Below are positions 1-4,768 of a stretch of DNA of 35,780 bases, piece after piece. A program made the translations under genes and the position numbers. The notes under the pieces are model-generated. The model saw only the letters and a program-made list of their open reading frames with translations, ran no database searches and was not told where the DNA came from. The stretch lies in the IMG/VR virus record IMGVR_UViG_3300031261_000045. One strand, 5' to 3'. The first letter of the stretch is position 1; each line of letters begins with the position of its first letter. Source of the stretch: a virus.

Positions 1-19
1 TATCCTCAGCATTGGTTTT

Positions 20-369
20 GGGTGCAGTCACCCTATCGTTGGGTGGCTACGAAAACAGACAGGCAACCACTTCACCTCGATCTCGGTGCAGTCACCCTAT
101 CGTTGGGTGGCTACGAAAACTGGATTGAGGAAGTGGCTACGGAAAACAAAAAGCCATCGACGATCCGGGTGAGCGCGGGTGCAGTCACCCTATCGTTGGG
201 TGGCTACGAAAAATTGCGATAACCTGCCAAGAGCAGGTCGGTGCAGTCACCCCGTCGTTGGGTGGCTACGAAAACACCTTTGGCCAGTACGCCACCATCA
301 TCCTGGGTGCAGTCACCCTATCGTTGGGTGGCTACGAAAACGAAAGCCTGTGCAGGCCGCAACACCTGC
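20..369 (+). CRISPR. CRISPR-like array. Five near-identical 36-bp repeats (GGTGCAGTCACCCTATCGTTGGGTGGCTACGAAAAC) at 21-56, 85-120, 178-213, 240-275 and 306-341. Unique 26-30 bp spacers lie between them; spacer 2 carries a half-repeat remnant.
   Basis: Direct reading. Repeats differ by at most 2 nt. Spacers are 28, (10 + remnant + 31), 26, 30 and 28 nt with no similarity to each other. Each repeat can fold as an 8-bp stem (AGUCACCC/GGGUGGCU with one G-U pair) and a 7-nt loop, followed by an 8-nt ACGAAAAC tail. That is the architecture of Cas6-processed type I/III crRNA repeats. No cas genes are present in the window. Confidence 0.45.
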
Positions 370-2064
370 TGGTGCAGCGATGGAGCGGCAGTTTTTATTC
401 AGCCTCAGTCGCCGGACGCGGCTACAAAAAGAAAAGGGCTCAGCCGGTTTCCCAGCCTTGGGTGGCTACGAAAACTTTGGAGTCGCTGCCCGGCCGCTAC
501 GATCAGTCACCCTATAGCTACGAAAAAAGGCTACGAGAACTGCCATCGGATCGTGCCGTCGGCGTAGGCCGCTCCAAAAACCGATTTAGTTCGGGACGAT
601 TCAGTCACCCTATGGCTACGAAAAAAGTTTCGATCGGAGCTTCGGTCATGCCGTGCCGTTGGGTGGCTACGAAAACATCGCTGAATTCGCCGTGCAGACC
701 ACTCCCCCACAGTCATCCTGCCTTTTGGACGGCTACGACAAGAAATGGCAACGACTTGTTGCGTTCGAGGCTACGAAAACACCGCTCCGACAGCCCTCGC
801 AGGGGCTACGAAAAATGTGACGGATTGGCTCAGTCATCCTGTCTTTGGATGGCTGGATGGCTACGAAAACACCCATGCCTGAGGTGGAACAGCGCCTTTG
901 GATGGCTACGAAAACACGCGTTTCGGAGACCCTACAACCTTTGGTGTTACAAAACTACTTGCCCGACAGCCCTCGACAGTCTACATCGAGTGGCTACAGA
1001 AAACAGAAGCTGATGATCGACATGCTGGCCAAGGCTTCAGTCGCTCCGCCACTCGGACGGCTACAAAAAGAATGTTGCGTCTGGCTTGGTGGCTCCGAGA
1101 TTCAGTCACCCCACTCGGGACGGCTACGAAAACGGAAATCGATGATTGGTGGGTCGCTACAACAACACACAGGGTGGCATGGGTACGGTCCGGCATTCGG
1201 GCGGCTACGAAAATTTGCGTGGGCTACTAAAAGACCACTGATCCAGTTGGGTTCGGGTTCAGTCACTCTTGGGTGGCTACGAAAATCTTGTGTGGCGGGC
1301 GGGTTTAAAGTCACCTTTTTTGGGTAGCTATGGAAAGTGGGTGGCTACGAAAATATCAATCCCAGGTCGGCGAGCTAGCCGCTGAGTTCCAGTCACCCGA
1401 TGTTTCGGTGGCTACGAAAAATTCAACTGGCGCCCGTTGGGGGTATACCTGGGTGGCTACGAAAAACTTGCATGGCGAATGCATGGCGGTTCAGTCACCC
1501 GGCCATGTGGCTACGAAAATGAGAGTGCACGGCGCGAGAGCTTATTTGATGCATTGTATGAGAGCGACGATCGCGCTATGTCGTTCGTCGGCTATGAGAG
1601 AGAGTGGCTACGACAACATACAGAAATGGGCGGGGATTGAAGGCTACAAAAAGCTACGAAAAGGCTACGAAAAACGTGTGAGCCTTGCGAACCCCGAATG
1701 CCTCAGTTTCAGTCACCCTTCGGGTGGCTACGAAAAATGTATCCGAGGGCTGAGCGCAGGAGGCGCAGTCACCCTATCGTTGGGTGGCTAGGATGGCTAC
1801 GACAACCCCGTACATCACGGCCAGACGGGCATCATCGGCTCACTCACCCTACCATCCGGCGGCTACGACAAGGGCACGACTGCGGACGTCCTTTCAAGAG
1901 CCATGGGATGGCTACGAAAACAGAATCGTCACTCACGAGTAACTACACAGAAGTGCAGTCATCCCGTTGGCATGGCTATGAAAATGGAAATGGATACGAC
2001 CACAAGACCGACAGCAAGAGGACCGGCAAGCTGGTTTCAGTCACCCTTGGGCGGCTACGAAAAC
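370..2064 (+). repeat. Field of more than 35 degenerate derivatives of the same repeat (hairpin CAGTCAYCC-loop-GGRYGGCTAC plus ACGAAAAC/ACGACAAG tail, or bare GGCTACGAAAA half-sites) with irregular 15-110 bp spacing
   Basis: Occurrences of the core GGCTACGA(A/C)AA are at ~459, 504, 529, 610, 664, 730, 770, 805, 860, 903, 990, 1060, 1121, 1203, 1275, 1343, 1409, 1455, 1509, 1606, 1641-1675 (three tandem), 1725, 1795, 1860, 1910, 1975 and 2052. A near-perfect 29-nt copy of the canonical repeat reappears at 1762-1790. The ORF-track peptides in this span (recurring GGYEN / WVATKT / WLRK) are translations of the repeat and are not credible genes. Confidence 0.7.
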
Positions 2065-2080
2065 AAACAGCACGATCGCA

Positions 2081-2114
2081 ACCTCAAGCGGACGCAGCCA
2101 AGGCCGCTTGAGGT
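2081..2114 (+). other. Very stable GC-rich hairpin (11-bp perfect stem ACCTCAAGCGG/CCGCTTGAGGT, 12-nt loop) at the boundary between the repeat field and the first cassette gene
   Basis: The perfect inverted repeat is read directly. No downstream U-tract on either strand, so it is not a canonical intrinsic terminator. It could be a processing or stability element or a factor-dependent terminator. Confidence 0.4.
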
Positions 2115-2194
2115 GACATCTGCAAATATAGCCAACAACCACGCGATCGAAAAGCGCAAATACGCTTCCAATTCGTATTGGAGGGTTGTAGACC

Positions 2195-2521
2195 ATGGTG
2201 ATGCAACAGCCCGAACCCGATGTGCGTCCCGTGATTGCAGCGCTATTCGCCGAACTGCAACAAGGCGGCGCATCGCCGTTTCTGGCCATGACCCTTGCGA
2301 TCGAGATCGTGCTGCAAGACCTGCACCACTTGATCGTGTTGATGGCCTTTGATCACGCCATCCGCGATCGCATTGAACTCATGCATGATATCATCGAGAC
2401 GTCACGCAGTTTCAACCAGAGATTCCACTGGCTGATGCGGGTGGCGTTTTGGCTGAACATGTTCGTATCAGCTTTGGGCATCACATGGTTCGTCCTGCTG
2501 TTATTGCGGATACTATCTTGA
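2195..2521 (+). CDS. Hypothetical small protein (108 aa) with a C-terminal hydrophobic helix
   Basis: ATG preceded by GGAGGG at -8. C-terminus WLMRVAFWLNMFVSALGITWFVLLLLRIL is transmembrane-like. No family recognised. Confidence 0.5.
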   Translation: MVMQQPEPDVRPVIAALFAELQQGGASPFLAMTLAIEIVLQDLHHLIVLMAFDHAIRDRIELMHDIIETSRSFNQRFHWLMRVAFWLNMFVSALGITWFVLLLLRILS

Positions 2522-3587: not shown

Positions 3588-3613
3588 CGTTTGTTGGCAT
3601 CCTCAGTGTTTTC

Positions 3614-3623
3614 ATTATTTAAC
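3614..3623 (-). promoter_or_regulatory. Late-promoter-like motif TTAAATAAT ~28 nt upstream of the ART gene start (minus strand)
   Basis: Minus strand reads catgtTAAATAAtgaaaacactGAGGAtgccaacaaacATG. The TAAATA core is at 3616-3621, followed by an SD and ATG at the same spacing seen at the other copies. Confidence 0.35.
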
Positions 3624-3768
3624 ATGAAGTTCGATCAAACCAAACGGTTGACCCAACCCGATCGCCAGCATACACTCTGGTGTGCGATCTGACACGAGTT
3701 GCAGGCCATGATCGCAACCGAGGCTGCGCACGGTCACGAGAATCGATCACAGGACGATCACGAAGGGC

Positions 3769-4054
3769 GACGAAAACAGTAGGTGTCACCCGAAATGGCT
3801 ACGAAAAGGTTATGCTGAGGGACAAATAGCTACGATTCAGTCAGTCAGAGGCGGCTACGAAAAGGTTATGCTGAGGATGGCGGCTACGAAAAGGCTACGG
3901 TAAAAGCTCTAGGTCGGCCTTGGCCTTGGCGTCAACGCCAGTCACACATTGTGGCGGCTACGAAAAGGCTACGAAAAGAGCGGACGTCCCCAGGCGTCGA
4001 TCCCCGGCTATGAACAGTCATCCTCTTGATGGCTACGAGAACTACGATTCCTTT
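3769..4054 (+). repeat. Second cluster of the GGCTACGAAAA(G) repeat family in direct orientation (about 8 copies, several as tandem half-sites)
   Basis: Copies at ~3782-3808 (GGTGTCACCCGAAATGGCTACGAAAAG), 3862, 3889, 3899, 3957, 3969 and 4015-4045 (CAGTCATCCTCTTGATGGCTACGAGAAC). Confidence 0.65.
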
Positions 4055-4262
4055 GGGACTGGCGGGCGCTCTCGATGATCTGCCCTGGATAGAAGGTCGC
4101 CGCAATCTCTCGCGCCCGCTTGGGATTGGGCGACACATCGATCGCCACCACGTGATCGTTCATGTCCACGATGTCGAACCACATGTTCTCCGGATTGAGT
4201 CGCGCGTGATAGTGCAATGAATGTTTTCGCTCGGTGATTTGCAAAAGTTCTCGCAGGGTCAT
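4008..4262 (-). CDS. Possible small protein (84 aa). Its C-terminal end runs into repeat sequence.
   Basis: ATG at 4262 (MTLRELLQITERKHSLHYHARLNPENMWFDIVDMNDHVVAIDV...). It is preceded by gaCTAAATActtgc, with no clear SD. The C-terminal ~20 codons are repeat-derived. The longer 204-aa ORF (4008-4622) is mostly repeat translation. Confidence 0.25.
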   Translation of the reverse strand: MTLRELLQITERKHSLHYHARLNPENMWFDIVDMNDHVVAIDVSPNPKRAREIAATFYPGQIIESARQSQRNRSSRSHQEDDCS

Positions 4263-4299
4263 GCAAGTATTTAGTCTTTGGCGGCACAAGATGTTAAAG

Positions 4300-4768
4300 T
4301 TTGTCGTAGCCATCCACCATACCGGGTGACTGGAGCTTCGTCGTGCGCGGACTCTCATGATTTTAGTAGCCATCCATCGGATGGCTGCATCCGATCGTCC
4401 CCCATTTGAGGTCTTCCGTTTCCGTAGCCAGCCAAACAAGATGGATGACTGTAATAGCGCCTTTGCTATCATGCCGTGCAAATACTTCCCGGAATGGTCG
4501 TAGGCAACTCCCCTTCCTTTTCGTAGCCACAGGAGTGGCTGCATCCCATCAGCCCGTGTAGCCGCTACGCAAGCCAGTTTTCGTAGCCATTCGAACAGGA
4601 ATGACTGCATCCCGGATACCAACGGGGTGACGGCTCAGCAGATTTTTGTAGCTGTCGGCGTTTTCGTAGCCACCTAAATGCGAATGCGTCTTTTCGTAGC
4701 CATCCCGATCGAGGATGACTGATTCATTATCCCAAGGCTGCGCCTGCTGCTTTTCATAGCCATACAGG
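4300..4768 (-). repeat. Cluster of ~9 copies of the same repeat family in inverted orientation (TTTTCGTAGCC...GGRTGACTG on the plus strand)
   Basis: Examples: TTTGTCGTAGCCATCCACCATACCGGGTGACTGG (4300), TTTTAGTAGCCATCCATCGGATGGCTGCATCC (4360), TTTTCGTAGCCACAGGAGTGGCTGCATCC (4517), TTTTCGTAGCCATTCGAACAGGAATGACTGCATCC (4579), and 4643, 4662, 4692, 4750. In several copies both stem halves change together (CAGCCATCC/GGATGGCT versus CAGTCACCC/GGGTGGCT), which preserves pairing. Confidence 0.65.

Follow-up and report, generated by a model that had tools for sequence, protein, structure and literature searches.

The hairpin-forming repeats in the first 4.8 kb of a 35,780-nt viral sequence (IMG/VR record IMGVR_UViG_3300031261_000045, the whole of which is called the window) are probably CRISPR repeats, with a hairpin that a Cas6e-type endoribonuclease would recognize and cleave. 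A co-varying hairpin is an ordinary property of CRISPR repeats, and no new kind of element is at hand. Judged by sequence likeness, the window's arrays appear to be a further member of a rare repeat family tied elsewhere to type IV-A genes of putative huge phages. The motif GGCTACGAAAA occurs 51 times at ≤1 mismatch, always between positions 45 and 4761 (shuffles give 0.41), and is gathered in three clusters: A at 1–2064 (+), B at 3766–4042 (+) and C at 4300–4761 (−). A covariance model recovers 33 full units at E ≤ 0.01, every one inside 1–4768; the Rfam CRISPR-DR families gave no match at the gathering score in the whole window or at E ≤ 5 in 1–5000. The region is organized as follows.

1–341, + strand: homogeneous end of array A, five 36-nt repeats GGTGCAGTCACCCTATCGTTGGGTGGCTACGAAAAC at 21–56, 85–120, 178–213, 240–275 and 306–341
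342–2064, + strand: heterogeneous part of array A, ~31 tail motifs, covariance-model matches of 14.8–41.8 bits
2195–2832, + strand: two overlapping small ORFs directly downstream of array A, of 108 aa (2195–2521) and 115 aa (2485–2832)
2829–3587, − strand: ADP-ribosyltransferase gene (ART-PolyVal; PF18760, E = 7e-24) between the arrays
3648–3676, + strand: sigma-70-like promoter candidate TTGACC-17-TACACT upstream of cluster B, a consensus match only
3766–4042, + strand: cluster B, 7 tail motifs, most of them in units with a weak stem or with the tail alone
4008–4262, − strand: 84-aa ORF downstream of cluster C on the same strand, a called gene with no family match
4300–4761, − strand: cluster C, a small array of six full repeats with six different stems, and three tail-only units
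4775–4820, − strand: upstream region of cluster C, with TTGACC-16-TATAAC (4820–4793) and the motif TCTTTGATA (4783–4775)

Cluster A forms the distal portion of a CRISPR array, as other samples of the same phage show, in which a longer array is present (L178). The full array consists of a leader, 13 near-identical 36-nt repeats (≤2 differences among the 13 in L178) and then ~1.7 kb of non-identical repeats. Five of the 13 lie within the window at 21–341, scoring 45.7–49 bits with the covariance model, and window bases 1–20 are the end of a 30-nt spacer; upstream of position 1, L178 carries 8 further intact repeats, one 5′-truncated unit and the leader, with spacers mostly of 30 nt. The spacers listed for L178 are all different and measure 30, 30, 30, 30, 27, 30, 30, 28, 26 and 30 nt; within 1–341 of the window, spacers lie at 57–84 (28 nt), 121–177 (57 nt, with a tail-only unit inside it at 132–147), 214–239 (26 nt) and 276–305 (30 nt). 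The leader carries TCTTTGACA, a motif common to the arrays of four lineages, and the degenerate repeats lie on the leader-distal side. Three hallmarks of a CRISPR array are found together: near-identical direct repeats within the 23–50-nt range, unique spacers of uniform size in the homogeneous part, and a one-sided leader with a candidate promoter. Past position 341, full repeats with altered but intact stems are mixed with spacer-sized stretches of 21–32 nt joined to the 3′ half of a repeat and with tail-only tandems (for example 1642–1673), and the unit length (spacer plus repeat remnant) is not uniform, varying from 13 to 155 nt. Exactly one spacer-repeat unit is missing from the array in another sample (L190). 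The leader-proximal spacers are identical in every sample and all samples are ≥99.9% identical, so nothing points to ongoing acquisition, and the samples of this phage offer no evolutionary depth.

The 3′ tail is the best-conserved part of the unit, as a preliminary description had noted: an unbiased scan with all 11-mers of the canonical repeat returned 51 copies of the tail, 8–14 of the 5′ arm and 5 of the loop, whose length varies freely from 3 to 9 nt, as also described, or more. About 18 of 58 units lack the 5′ arm and could not be cleaved by a hairpin-dependent Cas6. The canonical copy pairs AGTCACCC with GGGTGGCT as proposed, with a U·G wobble at stem position 3, and folds at −13.6 kcal/mol (z = −2.95). 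The repeat family and its canonical stem are therefore real, but two of the variants originally cited had been misread: the letters at 4516–4550, given as the switch AGCCATCC/GGATGGCT, are AGCCAC/GTGGCT, a 6-bp stem, and the supposed switch of both halves at 1258–1280 (CACTC) is a one-sided C-to-U change that gives a wobble. The readings AGCCATCC/GGATGGCT at 4360–4393 and AGTCATCC/GGATGGCT at 831–864 are correct, the latter with a duplicated 3′ arm, and the unit at 4015–4040, likened to it, does pair, but over just 7 bp (AGTCATC/GATGGCT). Further variants, which the preliminary description had overlooked, are AGTCATTC/GAATGGCT (4577–4610), AGTCGC/GCGGCT (~405), AGCCCT/GGGGCT (~787) and AGCCAT/ATGGCT (~1897). 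In all eight sequences that were folded (three from the window, five from L184, L192, L130 and L124; z −1.9 to −4.9), exactly 8 nt separate the hairpin from the end of the repeat, leaving the tail ACGAAAAC; a hairpin followed by an 8-nt tail is, in these predicted folds, the layout of a Cas6-cleaved repeat.

The wobble at stem position 3, present in 25 of the 31 distinct window copies, would be a C·A mismatch on the other strand, which argues for an RNA hairpin of the tail-sense strand. Where the preliminary description had left RNA and DNA side by side, the first is supported and the second is disfavoured by these one-strand U·G pairs. A DNA-level element, in which the units would serve as protein-binding sites or single-stranded hairpins (REP-like with RAYT/HUH, replication iterons or packaging sites), is extremely improbable. 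The reverse complement, TTTTC-GTAG-CC plus the hairpin, does resemble the REP/RAYT layout of a GTAG beside an imperfect palindrome, on the opposite strand, and assemblies often break inside the cluster. However, no RAYT gene was found, and no RAYT or HUH domain in any ORF tested; the 51 copies are clustered and co-oriented within 4.8 kb and not dispersed as REPs are; unique, uniform 30-nt spacers are unlike iterons; and the strand-specific wobble pairs on which the stem depends, together with at least six loci in which Cas6e-like and type IV-A genes are immediate neighbours of the family, point to RNA. Separately, the motif scan met a true enterobacterial REP by chance (L136).

Covariation in the stem is decisive only once related loci join the window copies. 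Across eight lineages (the window, L124, L130, L184, L192, L193, L195 and L197), 96.2% of stem cells are paired vs 90.3% in shuffles (0/500), 27 cells are changed on both sides vs 8.2 (0/500), and five of the eight pairs show changes on both sides (5/500), while controls slid out of register pair at just 21–49%. Stems read by hand in nine lineages (L198 added) comprise 15 variants with zero mismatched pairs and both-side changes at seven stem positions. Within the window, the 31 distinct copies have 94.9% of stem cells paired vs 92.9% in shuffles (2/500), and both-side changes occur in 10 cells vs 4.7 (1/500) and in 3 pairs (22/500); an anchored permutation gave p = 0.016 for stem positions 5–6 and was not significant for 5–8. 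Covariation inside the window is hence suggestive and comes mainly from stem position 6, a single column in which C-G becomes U-A. The earlier proposal that covariation with free loops marks selection on a stem-loop, not on coding sequence or a linear site, is upheld across lineages, and the signal in the window alone is weaker than it claimed.

Cluster B contains one clear hairpin unit (4012–4042, AGTCATC/GATGGCT) and a tail-only tandem without a spacer (3956–3977), and its last unit is overlapped in antisense by the 3′ end of the 84-aa ORF. Family searches with the two ORFs at 2195–2521 and 2485–2832 gave no match. Of the six full repeats of cluster C, five have intact stems (9, 8, 6, 5 and 8 bp, reading from 4724 to 4360), the sixth (4300–4335) pairs over 5 bp only in this register and has a shifted alternative stem, and the spacers are 25–29 nt with one of 65. 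The sequence TCTTTGAYA lies just upstream of arrays, always in array orientation, in the window phage (twice), L192 and L130 (twice), with near-variants in L197 and L198; this array-oriented motif, spread over four lineages, is counted in favour of the tail-sense transcription that we infer.

The heterogeneity of these units might instead be read as decay. A relic, in which at most the 13 identical repeats work, the 1.7-kb tail and clusters B and C have decayed, and the covariation reflects the copying of a few variants, is unlikely, although irregular spacing, truncated repeats, internal deletions (503–526, 601–624), duplicated 3′ arms (849–862, 1790–1800) and covariance-model scores that fall abruptly past 341 all fit it, as do the modest statistics within the window, where the ATCC/GGAT class could derive from one ancestral double change. 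Decay sits poorly with the different, intact 5–9 bp stems of cluster C, whose sixth repeat still pairs partly, with the high fraction of paired stem cells among the distinct window copies, and with the array-associated TCTTTGATA and −35/−10-like pair that precede cluster C. The same design recurs in L124, an independent phage contig where a terminator-like hairpin comes after five units with differing stems, and repeats next to cas genes are just as heterogeneous, with 10 non-identical repeats in L195 and 19 in L198.

The assignment to CRISPR repeats draws further on relatives, whose arrays adjoin cas genes in L184, L192, L193, L195 and L198. In L184, 8 repeats ending in GGCTACGAAAAC are preceded, at a distance of 20 nt, by a Cas6e-like gene (PF08798, 28.3 bits, cut-off 25). 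In L192, a contig of 554,748 bp, the order is Csf2, DinG, Csf3, two ORFs without a match, Cas6e-like and then 16 repeats; in L193, it is Csf3, two ORFs without a match, Cas6e-like, Csf2, DinG and then 9 repeats with a period of 66. The type IV-A gene set with an array is present in these two loci and partly in L194; no large subunit was identified in the operons, two ORFs of each being without a match. The same arrangement is seen in L195, L197 and L198, whose cas genes beyond the Cas6e-like one take their names from Pfam labels computed beforehand or from the layout of the genes; in L197, two divergent genes separate the Cas6e-like gene from the two repeats, which lie ~2.4 kb upstream of it. 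At 26 of 31 positions, the repeat of L197, AGTCACCCTGCGGTTGGGTGACTACGACAAC, agrees with the window stem-loop and tail, the last 12 nt of the L184 and L192 repeats are identical to the window's, and L193 has ACGAAAAC and the period of 66 in common with it. The contigs of L192 and L198 are ~550 kb long and are taken, by size only, as huge phages. The Cas6e-like proteins form a clade of 175–200 aa with 45 representatives among 1.84 billion proteins; they are matched by PF08798 and the PADLOC Cas6e models, and the NCBIfam I-E CasE model gives 14.6 bits, far below its 45.2 cut-off. The Cas6-like partner suggested at the outset thus gains support from both the PF08798 neighbours and the type IV-A operons.

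In type IV-A systems, the crRNA carries a 5′ tag of 8 nt (IV-A1) or 7 nt (IV-A3) and Cas6 caps the 3′ hairpin (PMC11519345); the tag is held by Cas5/Csf3, Cas1-Cas2 are absent, a DinG helicase takes the place of a nuclease, and the systems ride on mobile elements and act by silencing (PMC11519345; PMC11656645). The window agrees with IV-A1 of Pseudomonas and IV-A3 of Klebsiella plasmids in its hairpin repeat with a predicted 8-nt tag, and its relatives in adjoining Csf2, Csf3, DinG and Cas6e-like genes. The window repeats are 36 nt long, unlike those of the studied IV-A systems, which measure ~28–29 nt; the short Cas6e-like protein of a very small clade, the non-identical repeats of several arrays in the clade and, compared with plasmid-borne systems, the two ~550-kb carriers are further departures. 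Type I-E/Cas6e (CasE/Cse3) shares the RNase fold family (PF08798) and a stem-loop followed by an 8-nt tag, but differs in repeat sequence and length, and the neighbours of the relatives are Csf, not Cse, genes.

Under the CRISPR-repeat interpretation, each cluster would be transcribed tail-sense from an upstream leader or promoter, and every full repeat would fold into a 5–9 bp stem whose base, AGYC...GGCT, is kept while the upper pairs may vary as long as they pair. Cleavage by Cas6 would fall at the 3′ foot of the stem, leaving the invariant 8 nt ACGAAAAC as the 5′ tag of the following guide and the hairpin on the 3′ end of the preceding one; a type IV-A-like complex (Csf2/Cas7, Csf3/Cas5, DinG), which silences targets and does not cut, would then be loaded with these guides. 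The sequences show the array architecture, the hairpin register with its covariation, the tie of the repeat family to Cas6e-like genes and type IV-A operons in other loci, and non-identical repeats in arrays beside cas genes; transcription, the cleavage site, the Cas proteins serving this phage's arrays and any role of the half-repeat and tail-only units are inferred. With no Cas1-Cas2 in the family, new repeats would seldom be copied from a master repeat, and old ones would therefore drift independently under selection for folding; paired changes in the stems would follow from this divergence under a lasting demand for the fold. Of the two blocks, that of the 13 identical repeats near the leader looks younger and that of the heterogeneous units older.

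Unlike type IV-A loci, the window has arrays and no cas genes were found with them: none in the 11 kb left of array A (L189) or the ~33 kb to its right, ~45 kb in all, of a phage genome known for ~60 kb from contigs of which none exceeds 50 kb. No clade Cas6e-like protein was attributable to this phage, though it occurs in at least 40 blocks of the collection, and no host array matching the window repeats was found. The spacers had no match in the fetched loci, INPHARED phages, PLSDB plasmids or, for two spacers, IMG/VR, where relevant environmental elements are probably absent. Orphan arrays and mini-arrays of viruses (archaeal SPV1/SPV2, jumbo phages) likewise lack adjacent cas genes, Cas proteins being presumed to act in trans in inter-element conflict (PMC11656645). 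The window array resembles these in sitting on a viral genome without adjacent cas genes, and differs from mini-arrays, with their one or two spacers and host-identical repeats, in having >50 units, mostly non-identical.

It is quite improbable that the units act as an RNA decoy, an anti-CRISPR of the Racr kind: a phage devoid of its own type IV-A system would transcribe repeat-like units that soak up the Cas6, Cas5 and Cas7 of a competing element's type IV-A system in the same host or load them with useless guides. The missing cas genes and clade Cas6 would suit such a role, as would the excess of tails over conserved 5′ arms (51 vs ~14), by which the part that would become the Cas5-bound tag is kept, the tail-only tandems without spacers at 1642–1673 and 3956–3977, and the setting among small ORFs without a family match and an ADP-ribosyltransferase gene; virus-borne single repeat units are known inhibitors (PMC11656645). 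As in Racrs, repeat-like units are on a phage, some without a usable spacer, with the Cas-bound parts kept. The described Racrs, however, are single units (PMC11656645), whereas those of the window are arrayed, many with spacer-sized inserts, after a regular array. The 13 regular repeats, unique and mostly 30-nt spacers and leader have the look of a working array, and same-clade arrays beside cas genes are equally heterogeneous, so that heterogeneity does not call for a decoy role.

A more specific reading, that repeat diversity is a maintained design and not decay in a small type IV-A clade and that the window phage is an array-only element, is tentative and rather doubtful. If true, the arrays would be hard-wired guide sets, not renewed, without Cas1-Cas2, whose repeats keep no more than the fold, the foot of the stem and the 8-nt tag, their diversity guarding against unit loss by recombination between identical repeats. 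The phage would then feed >30 fixed guides, or tag-bearing decoys, into another element's type IV-A machine in the same cell, silencing a rival or blunting the rival's system.

Carriers of the clade are phage or phage-like contigs, of which two measure ~550 kb; in one of these, L192, an ART-PolyVal gene is again present, ~6 kb away from the array.

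The first 4.8 kb of the window contain 51 copies of GGCTACGAAAA at no more than one mismatch, compared with 0.41 in shuffled sequence, and the other 31 kb contain none at the same threshold. The conserved 3′ end of the repeat, the tail, is co-oriented within each of three clusters, and cluster A opens with a run of identical repeats:

1–2064, + strand: cluster A, co-oriented tail copies
21–56, 85–120, 178–213, 240–275 and 306–341, + strand: five identical 36-nt repeats, GGTGCAGTCACCCTATCGTTGGGTGGCTACGAAAAC, at the start of cluster A
3766–4042, + strand: cluster B, co-oriented tail copies
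4300–4761, − strand: cluster C, co-oriented tail copies

Unique sequences of 28, 57, 26 and 30 nt separate the first five repeats of cluster A, and the units become irregular beyond position 341. Cluster C has six full repeats; the stems of five are intact (5–9 bp) and differ from one another, the sixth pairs only partially in the same register, and the spacers measure 25–29 nt. An Rfam search with the window repeat found no family match, even at E ≤ 5, and a literature search by repeat sequence retrieved primer coincidences only. The remainder of the window is phage-like, with a gp25-like baseplate protein and a VgrG/lysozyme-type protein among its ORFs, and also encodes a 3549-aa ORF, a protein bearing the shoulder domain of major vault protein, and an ART-PolyVal ADP-ribosyltransferase (ART).

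The same phage is present in other samples, where the exact ART protein sequence is recorded in 40 blocks of the assembly collection; the six contexts fetched are all at least 99.9% identical to the window. The window starts inside an array: upstream lie a leader and eight further intact repeats, and the full array A comprises 13 near-identical repeats with unique spacers of 30, 30, 30, 30, 27, 30, 30, 28, 26 and 30 nt. Three further JGI contigs, L190 among them, display the same picture. Between two samples of the phage, L190 (~1735–1790) and L178 (reverse complement, 6985–7050), exactly one spacer–repeat unit, with spacer TAGAACTGTTCGTTCTCCTGGAGTGCCGGA, is absent from the former, and the remaining units are the same. 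About 1.7 kb of heterogeneous units lie on the leader-distal side of the homogeneous block. This succession of leader, homogeneous block and leader-distal heterogeneous units is the architecture of a CRISPR array, and the 4.8-kb repeat field of the window can be recognised as CRISPR arrays, carried by a phage, whose repeats belong to a rare family.

Almost all occurrences of the 9-mer TCTTTGAYA lie a short way upstream of an array and share its orientation; the 9-mer is a putative leader or promoter element common to the repeat family:

window 4775–4783, − strand: before cluster C
L178 (window phage, other sample) 14219–14227, − strand: array A leader
L192 (related locus) 10556, and L130 (further lineage) 3256 and 4092, array orientation: before arrays

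Near-variants are found in two related loci with Cas6e-like genes (L197 and L198). Promoter-like motifs, matched by sequence only, precede cluster B (TTGACC-17-TACACT) and cluster C (TTGACC-16-TATAAC). A role for the repeat unit itself as promoter or terminator was rejected, as an A-run and not a T-run follows the hairpin; a terminator scan gave no more matches than chance.

Elsewhere, arrays of this family are accompanied by cas genes. When metagenomes were scanned for pairs of tails spaced as in an array, one locus retrieved (L184) had eight repeats GTTCAGCCATCCCCTAAAATGGGTGGCTACGAAAAC, the first located 20 nt past an ORF of 180 aa with a Cas6e-family match (PF08798, 28.3 bits, cut-off 25). 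A 53%-identical homologue is the last gene of an operon on the 554,748-bp contig L192, with Csf2/Cas7, DinG/Csf4, Csf3/Cas5 and two unmatched proteins; a leader and 16 repeats CTCTCAGCCATTTAGAAAATAGATGGCTACGAAAAC come next. Queried with both Cas6e-like proteins, a full HMMER search of 1.84 billion representatives yielded only 45 relatives. Six were examined, five with readable DNA and a sixth, on a 993-bp contig, without any; all five readable relatives have a type IV-A gene layout, with PADLOC scoring of the cas genes in L193 and part of L194. The arrays of these loci comprise nine repeats GATATGCAACCCCTGCGTTTGAGGGGTTACGAAAAC with a period of 66 (L193), ten repeats (L195) and nineteen repeats on a 548,795-bp scaffold (L198), and the L197 repeat matches the stem-loop and tail of the window repeat at 26 of 31 positions. 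Since the related arrays adjoin type IV-A layouts, the window repeat family is that of a small type IV-A clade. Two carriers of the clade (~550-kb contigs) are presumed, from their size only, to be huge phages.

The clade appears sparsely in databases: no Cas6 relatives were found in IMG/VR, and in a word-indexed set of 5.8 billion the L192 Csf2 and L197 Cas6 each matched only itself, while the L184 Cas6 retrieved one other protein, the L192 Cas6. Two ORFs of ~200–250 aa lie between Csf3 and the Cas6e-like gene (L192 8609–9999; L193 1532–2816); they have no Pfam, NCBIfam, PADLOC or PHROG match and are candidates for the missing large subunit and a small subunit. A conserved small ORF (MSSEAA.KAW.TRR...GWVHPASR) directly follows the last repeat in both L184 (1208–1282) and L192 (11841–12002), with a tblastx match of 70% identity between the two, and has no counterpart in the window. 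No protein similarity links the window phage to L124, L129, L130 or L192 in the stretches compared.

A preliminary description had claimed compensatory changes in both stem halves of the repeats within 1–4768. The canonical stem AGTCACCC/GGGTGGCT is present, with a U·G wobble as its third pair (fold −13.6 kcal/mol, z = −2.95), and the variants AGCCATCC/GGATGGCT at 4360–4393 and AGTCATCC/GGATGGCT at 831–864 are as described. The claimed variant at 4015–4040 does pair, but over only 7 bp; the actual stem at 4516–4550 is a different one, AGCCAC/GTGGCT; and at 1258–1280 a C-to-U change on one side only creates a wobble, not a two-sided switch. Variants that had escaped that description are AGTCATTC/GAATGGCT, AGTCGC/GCGGCT, AGCCCT/GGGGCT and AGCCAT/ATGGCT. 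The tail, said to be the most conserved part, is so when each 11-mer of the canonical repeat is counted at no more than one mismatch (51 copies, compared with 8–14 for the 5′ arm and 5 for the loop), and the 5′ arm is wholly absent in ~18 of 58 units of the whole phage region.

In a MAFFT alignment of all variants the 5′ arms were misplaced, and a covariance model was therefore built from an ungapped seed; a few loop bases were edited, one stem base was added to one sequence and a duplicated 3′ arm was cut from another, for model building only, with all counts taken from real sequences. At E ≤ 0.01 the model picks out 33 units, none of them outside 1–4768. Among them, 94.9% of stem cells are paired compared with 92.9% in shuffles (2/500), 10 cells are changed on both sides compared with 4.7 (1/500), three pairs are changed on both sides (22/500), and slid controls are 18–49% paired. 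With the conserved AGYC and GGCT as anchors, a permutation test that needs no alignment is significant for stem positions 5–6 (p = 0.016) but not for positions 5–8. Taken alone, the window copies are thus suggestive of covariation; most of the signal comes from one column (stem position 6, C–G versus U–A), and these copies, as paralogues, may share ancestry.

Comparison across lineages extends this result. Stems read by hand from nine lineages (at least one each) comprise 15 variants with no mismatched pair and with two-sided changes at stem positions 1, 2, 3, 5, 6, 7 and 8, position 4 (C–G) being invariant. All lineages have ACGA(A/C)AAC as the tail of their main repeat, and a few degenerate window units have one more base difference. 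When 53 distinct sequences from eight lineages are aligned on the model, 96.2% of cells are paired compared with 90.3% in shuffles (0/500), 5 of 8 pairs are changed on both sides (5/500), as are 27 cells compared with 8.2 (0/500), and the covariation score is 0.263 compared with 0.176 (0/500); slid controls are 21–49% paired. This alignment was fitted to the model and hence favours structure. Neither the table of hand-read stems nor the anchored permutation (p < 5e-5 across lineages, stem positions 5–6) depends on it.

Compensatory changes in the stems of CRISPR repeats are textbook knowledge. The frequent U·G at stem position 3 would be C·A on the opposite strand, so the folded molecule is the tail-sense strand, most simply as RNA. 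A DNA-level element, REP-like or composed of iterons, is very improbable given these strand-specific wobbles, the uniform spacers and the association with Cas6. Between the predicted hairpin and the end of the CRISPR repeat lie exactly 8 nt in every repeat folded; in type IV-A complexes, structures and RNA-seq place a 5′ tag of 8 or 7 nt on Cas5, and Cas6 at the 3′ hairpin (PMC11519345).

Type IV-A systems are without Cas1–Cas2, and any adaptation they have is borrowed in trans (bioRxiv 10.1101/2023.06.23.546257; PMC11656645). New repeats would then seldom be copied from the first repeat, leaving old repeats free to diverge. Non-identical repeats likewise make up the cas-adjacent arrays of L195 and L198, where the stems carry indels and substitutions and still pair, and on an independent viral contig (L124) a terminator-like hairpin comes after five units that differ in their stems. 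We therefore infer that the heterogeneous units are old repeats, drifting while selection acts on the Cas6 hairpin, and that the 13 near-identical repeats are a younger block. Arrays no longer renewed, with drifting repeats, would be a simple reason why this selection and its compensatory changes are visible inside a single genome.

Other units are truncated, with a spacer-sized stretch of ~26–32 nt followed by only the last 17–19 nt of the repeat, or are reduced to tails:

438–475, 640–676, 887–915, 1429–1466 and 1890–1921: half units
1642–1673 and 3956–3977: tail-only tandems, period 11 nt

The half unit that shares TTTGGATGGCT (849–870 and 894–915) copies the loop-proximal variant 3′ half of the repeat just upstream, which hints at possible local duplication of 3′ halves. 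Such half-repeat or tail-only units are numerous and would be beyond cutting by a hairpin-dependent Cas6. The 11 kb to the left of array A and the ~33 kb to its right contain no cas gene, and tblastn, local profile search, Pfam and PADLOC revealed no Cas6 or other cas genes in the phage. Cluster sizes, checked for ten Cas6 relatives, point to no Cas6e-like protein in the clade that occurs as widely as the window phage, and no spacer matched a target in any set searched. These absences and the uncuttable units keep two rivals alive: that the distal array is plain decay, which we regard as improbable, and that the tag-bearing units are a decoy or anti-CRISPR, for which the odds appear slim. It is possible, if doubtful, that repeat diversity is a maintained design and that the phage, bearing arrays only, uses or sabotages the system of another element.

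As phage-borne CRISPR arrays, the repeats have precedents: earlier descriptions cover viruses bearing orphan arrays and repeat units, jumbo phages with CRISPR systems, and some phages and prophages with type IV systems (PMC11656645). It is unusual for the repeats of an array to be non-identical. The 4.8-kb repeat field, previously unexplained, has become a recognisable object, its repeat family now tied to a little-sampled type IV-A branch.

An IMG/VR scan with a 14-mer gave chance matches only, and the sole match of a gapped IMG/VR pattern (L121) was dismissed as chance; the gap was one base short, and the canonical copy was also missed. A GTDB scan for two tails 24–54 nt apart, a range just below the 66-nt period, gave 47 loci, and a host array with the window repeat may therefore exist. 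Apart from some hairpin tandems of Planctomycetota, these loci are one enterobacterial REP and unrelated repeats, tandem or coding, and were set aside. Seven of the 47 matches are from Planctomycetota, where MAG contigs carry a perfect 8–9 bp hairpin followed by CTACGAAAA(A/C) in tandem, for example CCGAAGTCtcacGACTTCGGCTACGAAAAA, with periods of 36–57 nt and without unique spacers:

L168 5050–5250; L151 1–500; L152 1150–1260; L163 5430–5549: hairpin tandems on Planctomycetota MAG contigs

Several further genes of the phage were observed. The ART-PolyVal gene lies a few kb from the arrays both in the window (2829–3587, −) and in L192 (16536–17024, −), the latter a 555-kb contig with type IV-A. 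The vault-domain protein (840 aa, 4825–7347, −; PF11978, E = 5e-18, with a weak vault repeat) is found in all samples of the window phage. In the baseplate/tail region, the 3549-aa ORF (8180–18829, −) is directly followed by a 1128-aa ORF (18830–22216, −), both with no Pfam match. The LAGLIDADG and intein-splicing signals of a 944-aa ORF (32038–34872, +) suggest an intein-containing gene, and a dual-specificity phosphatase gene follows (34891–35421, +).
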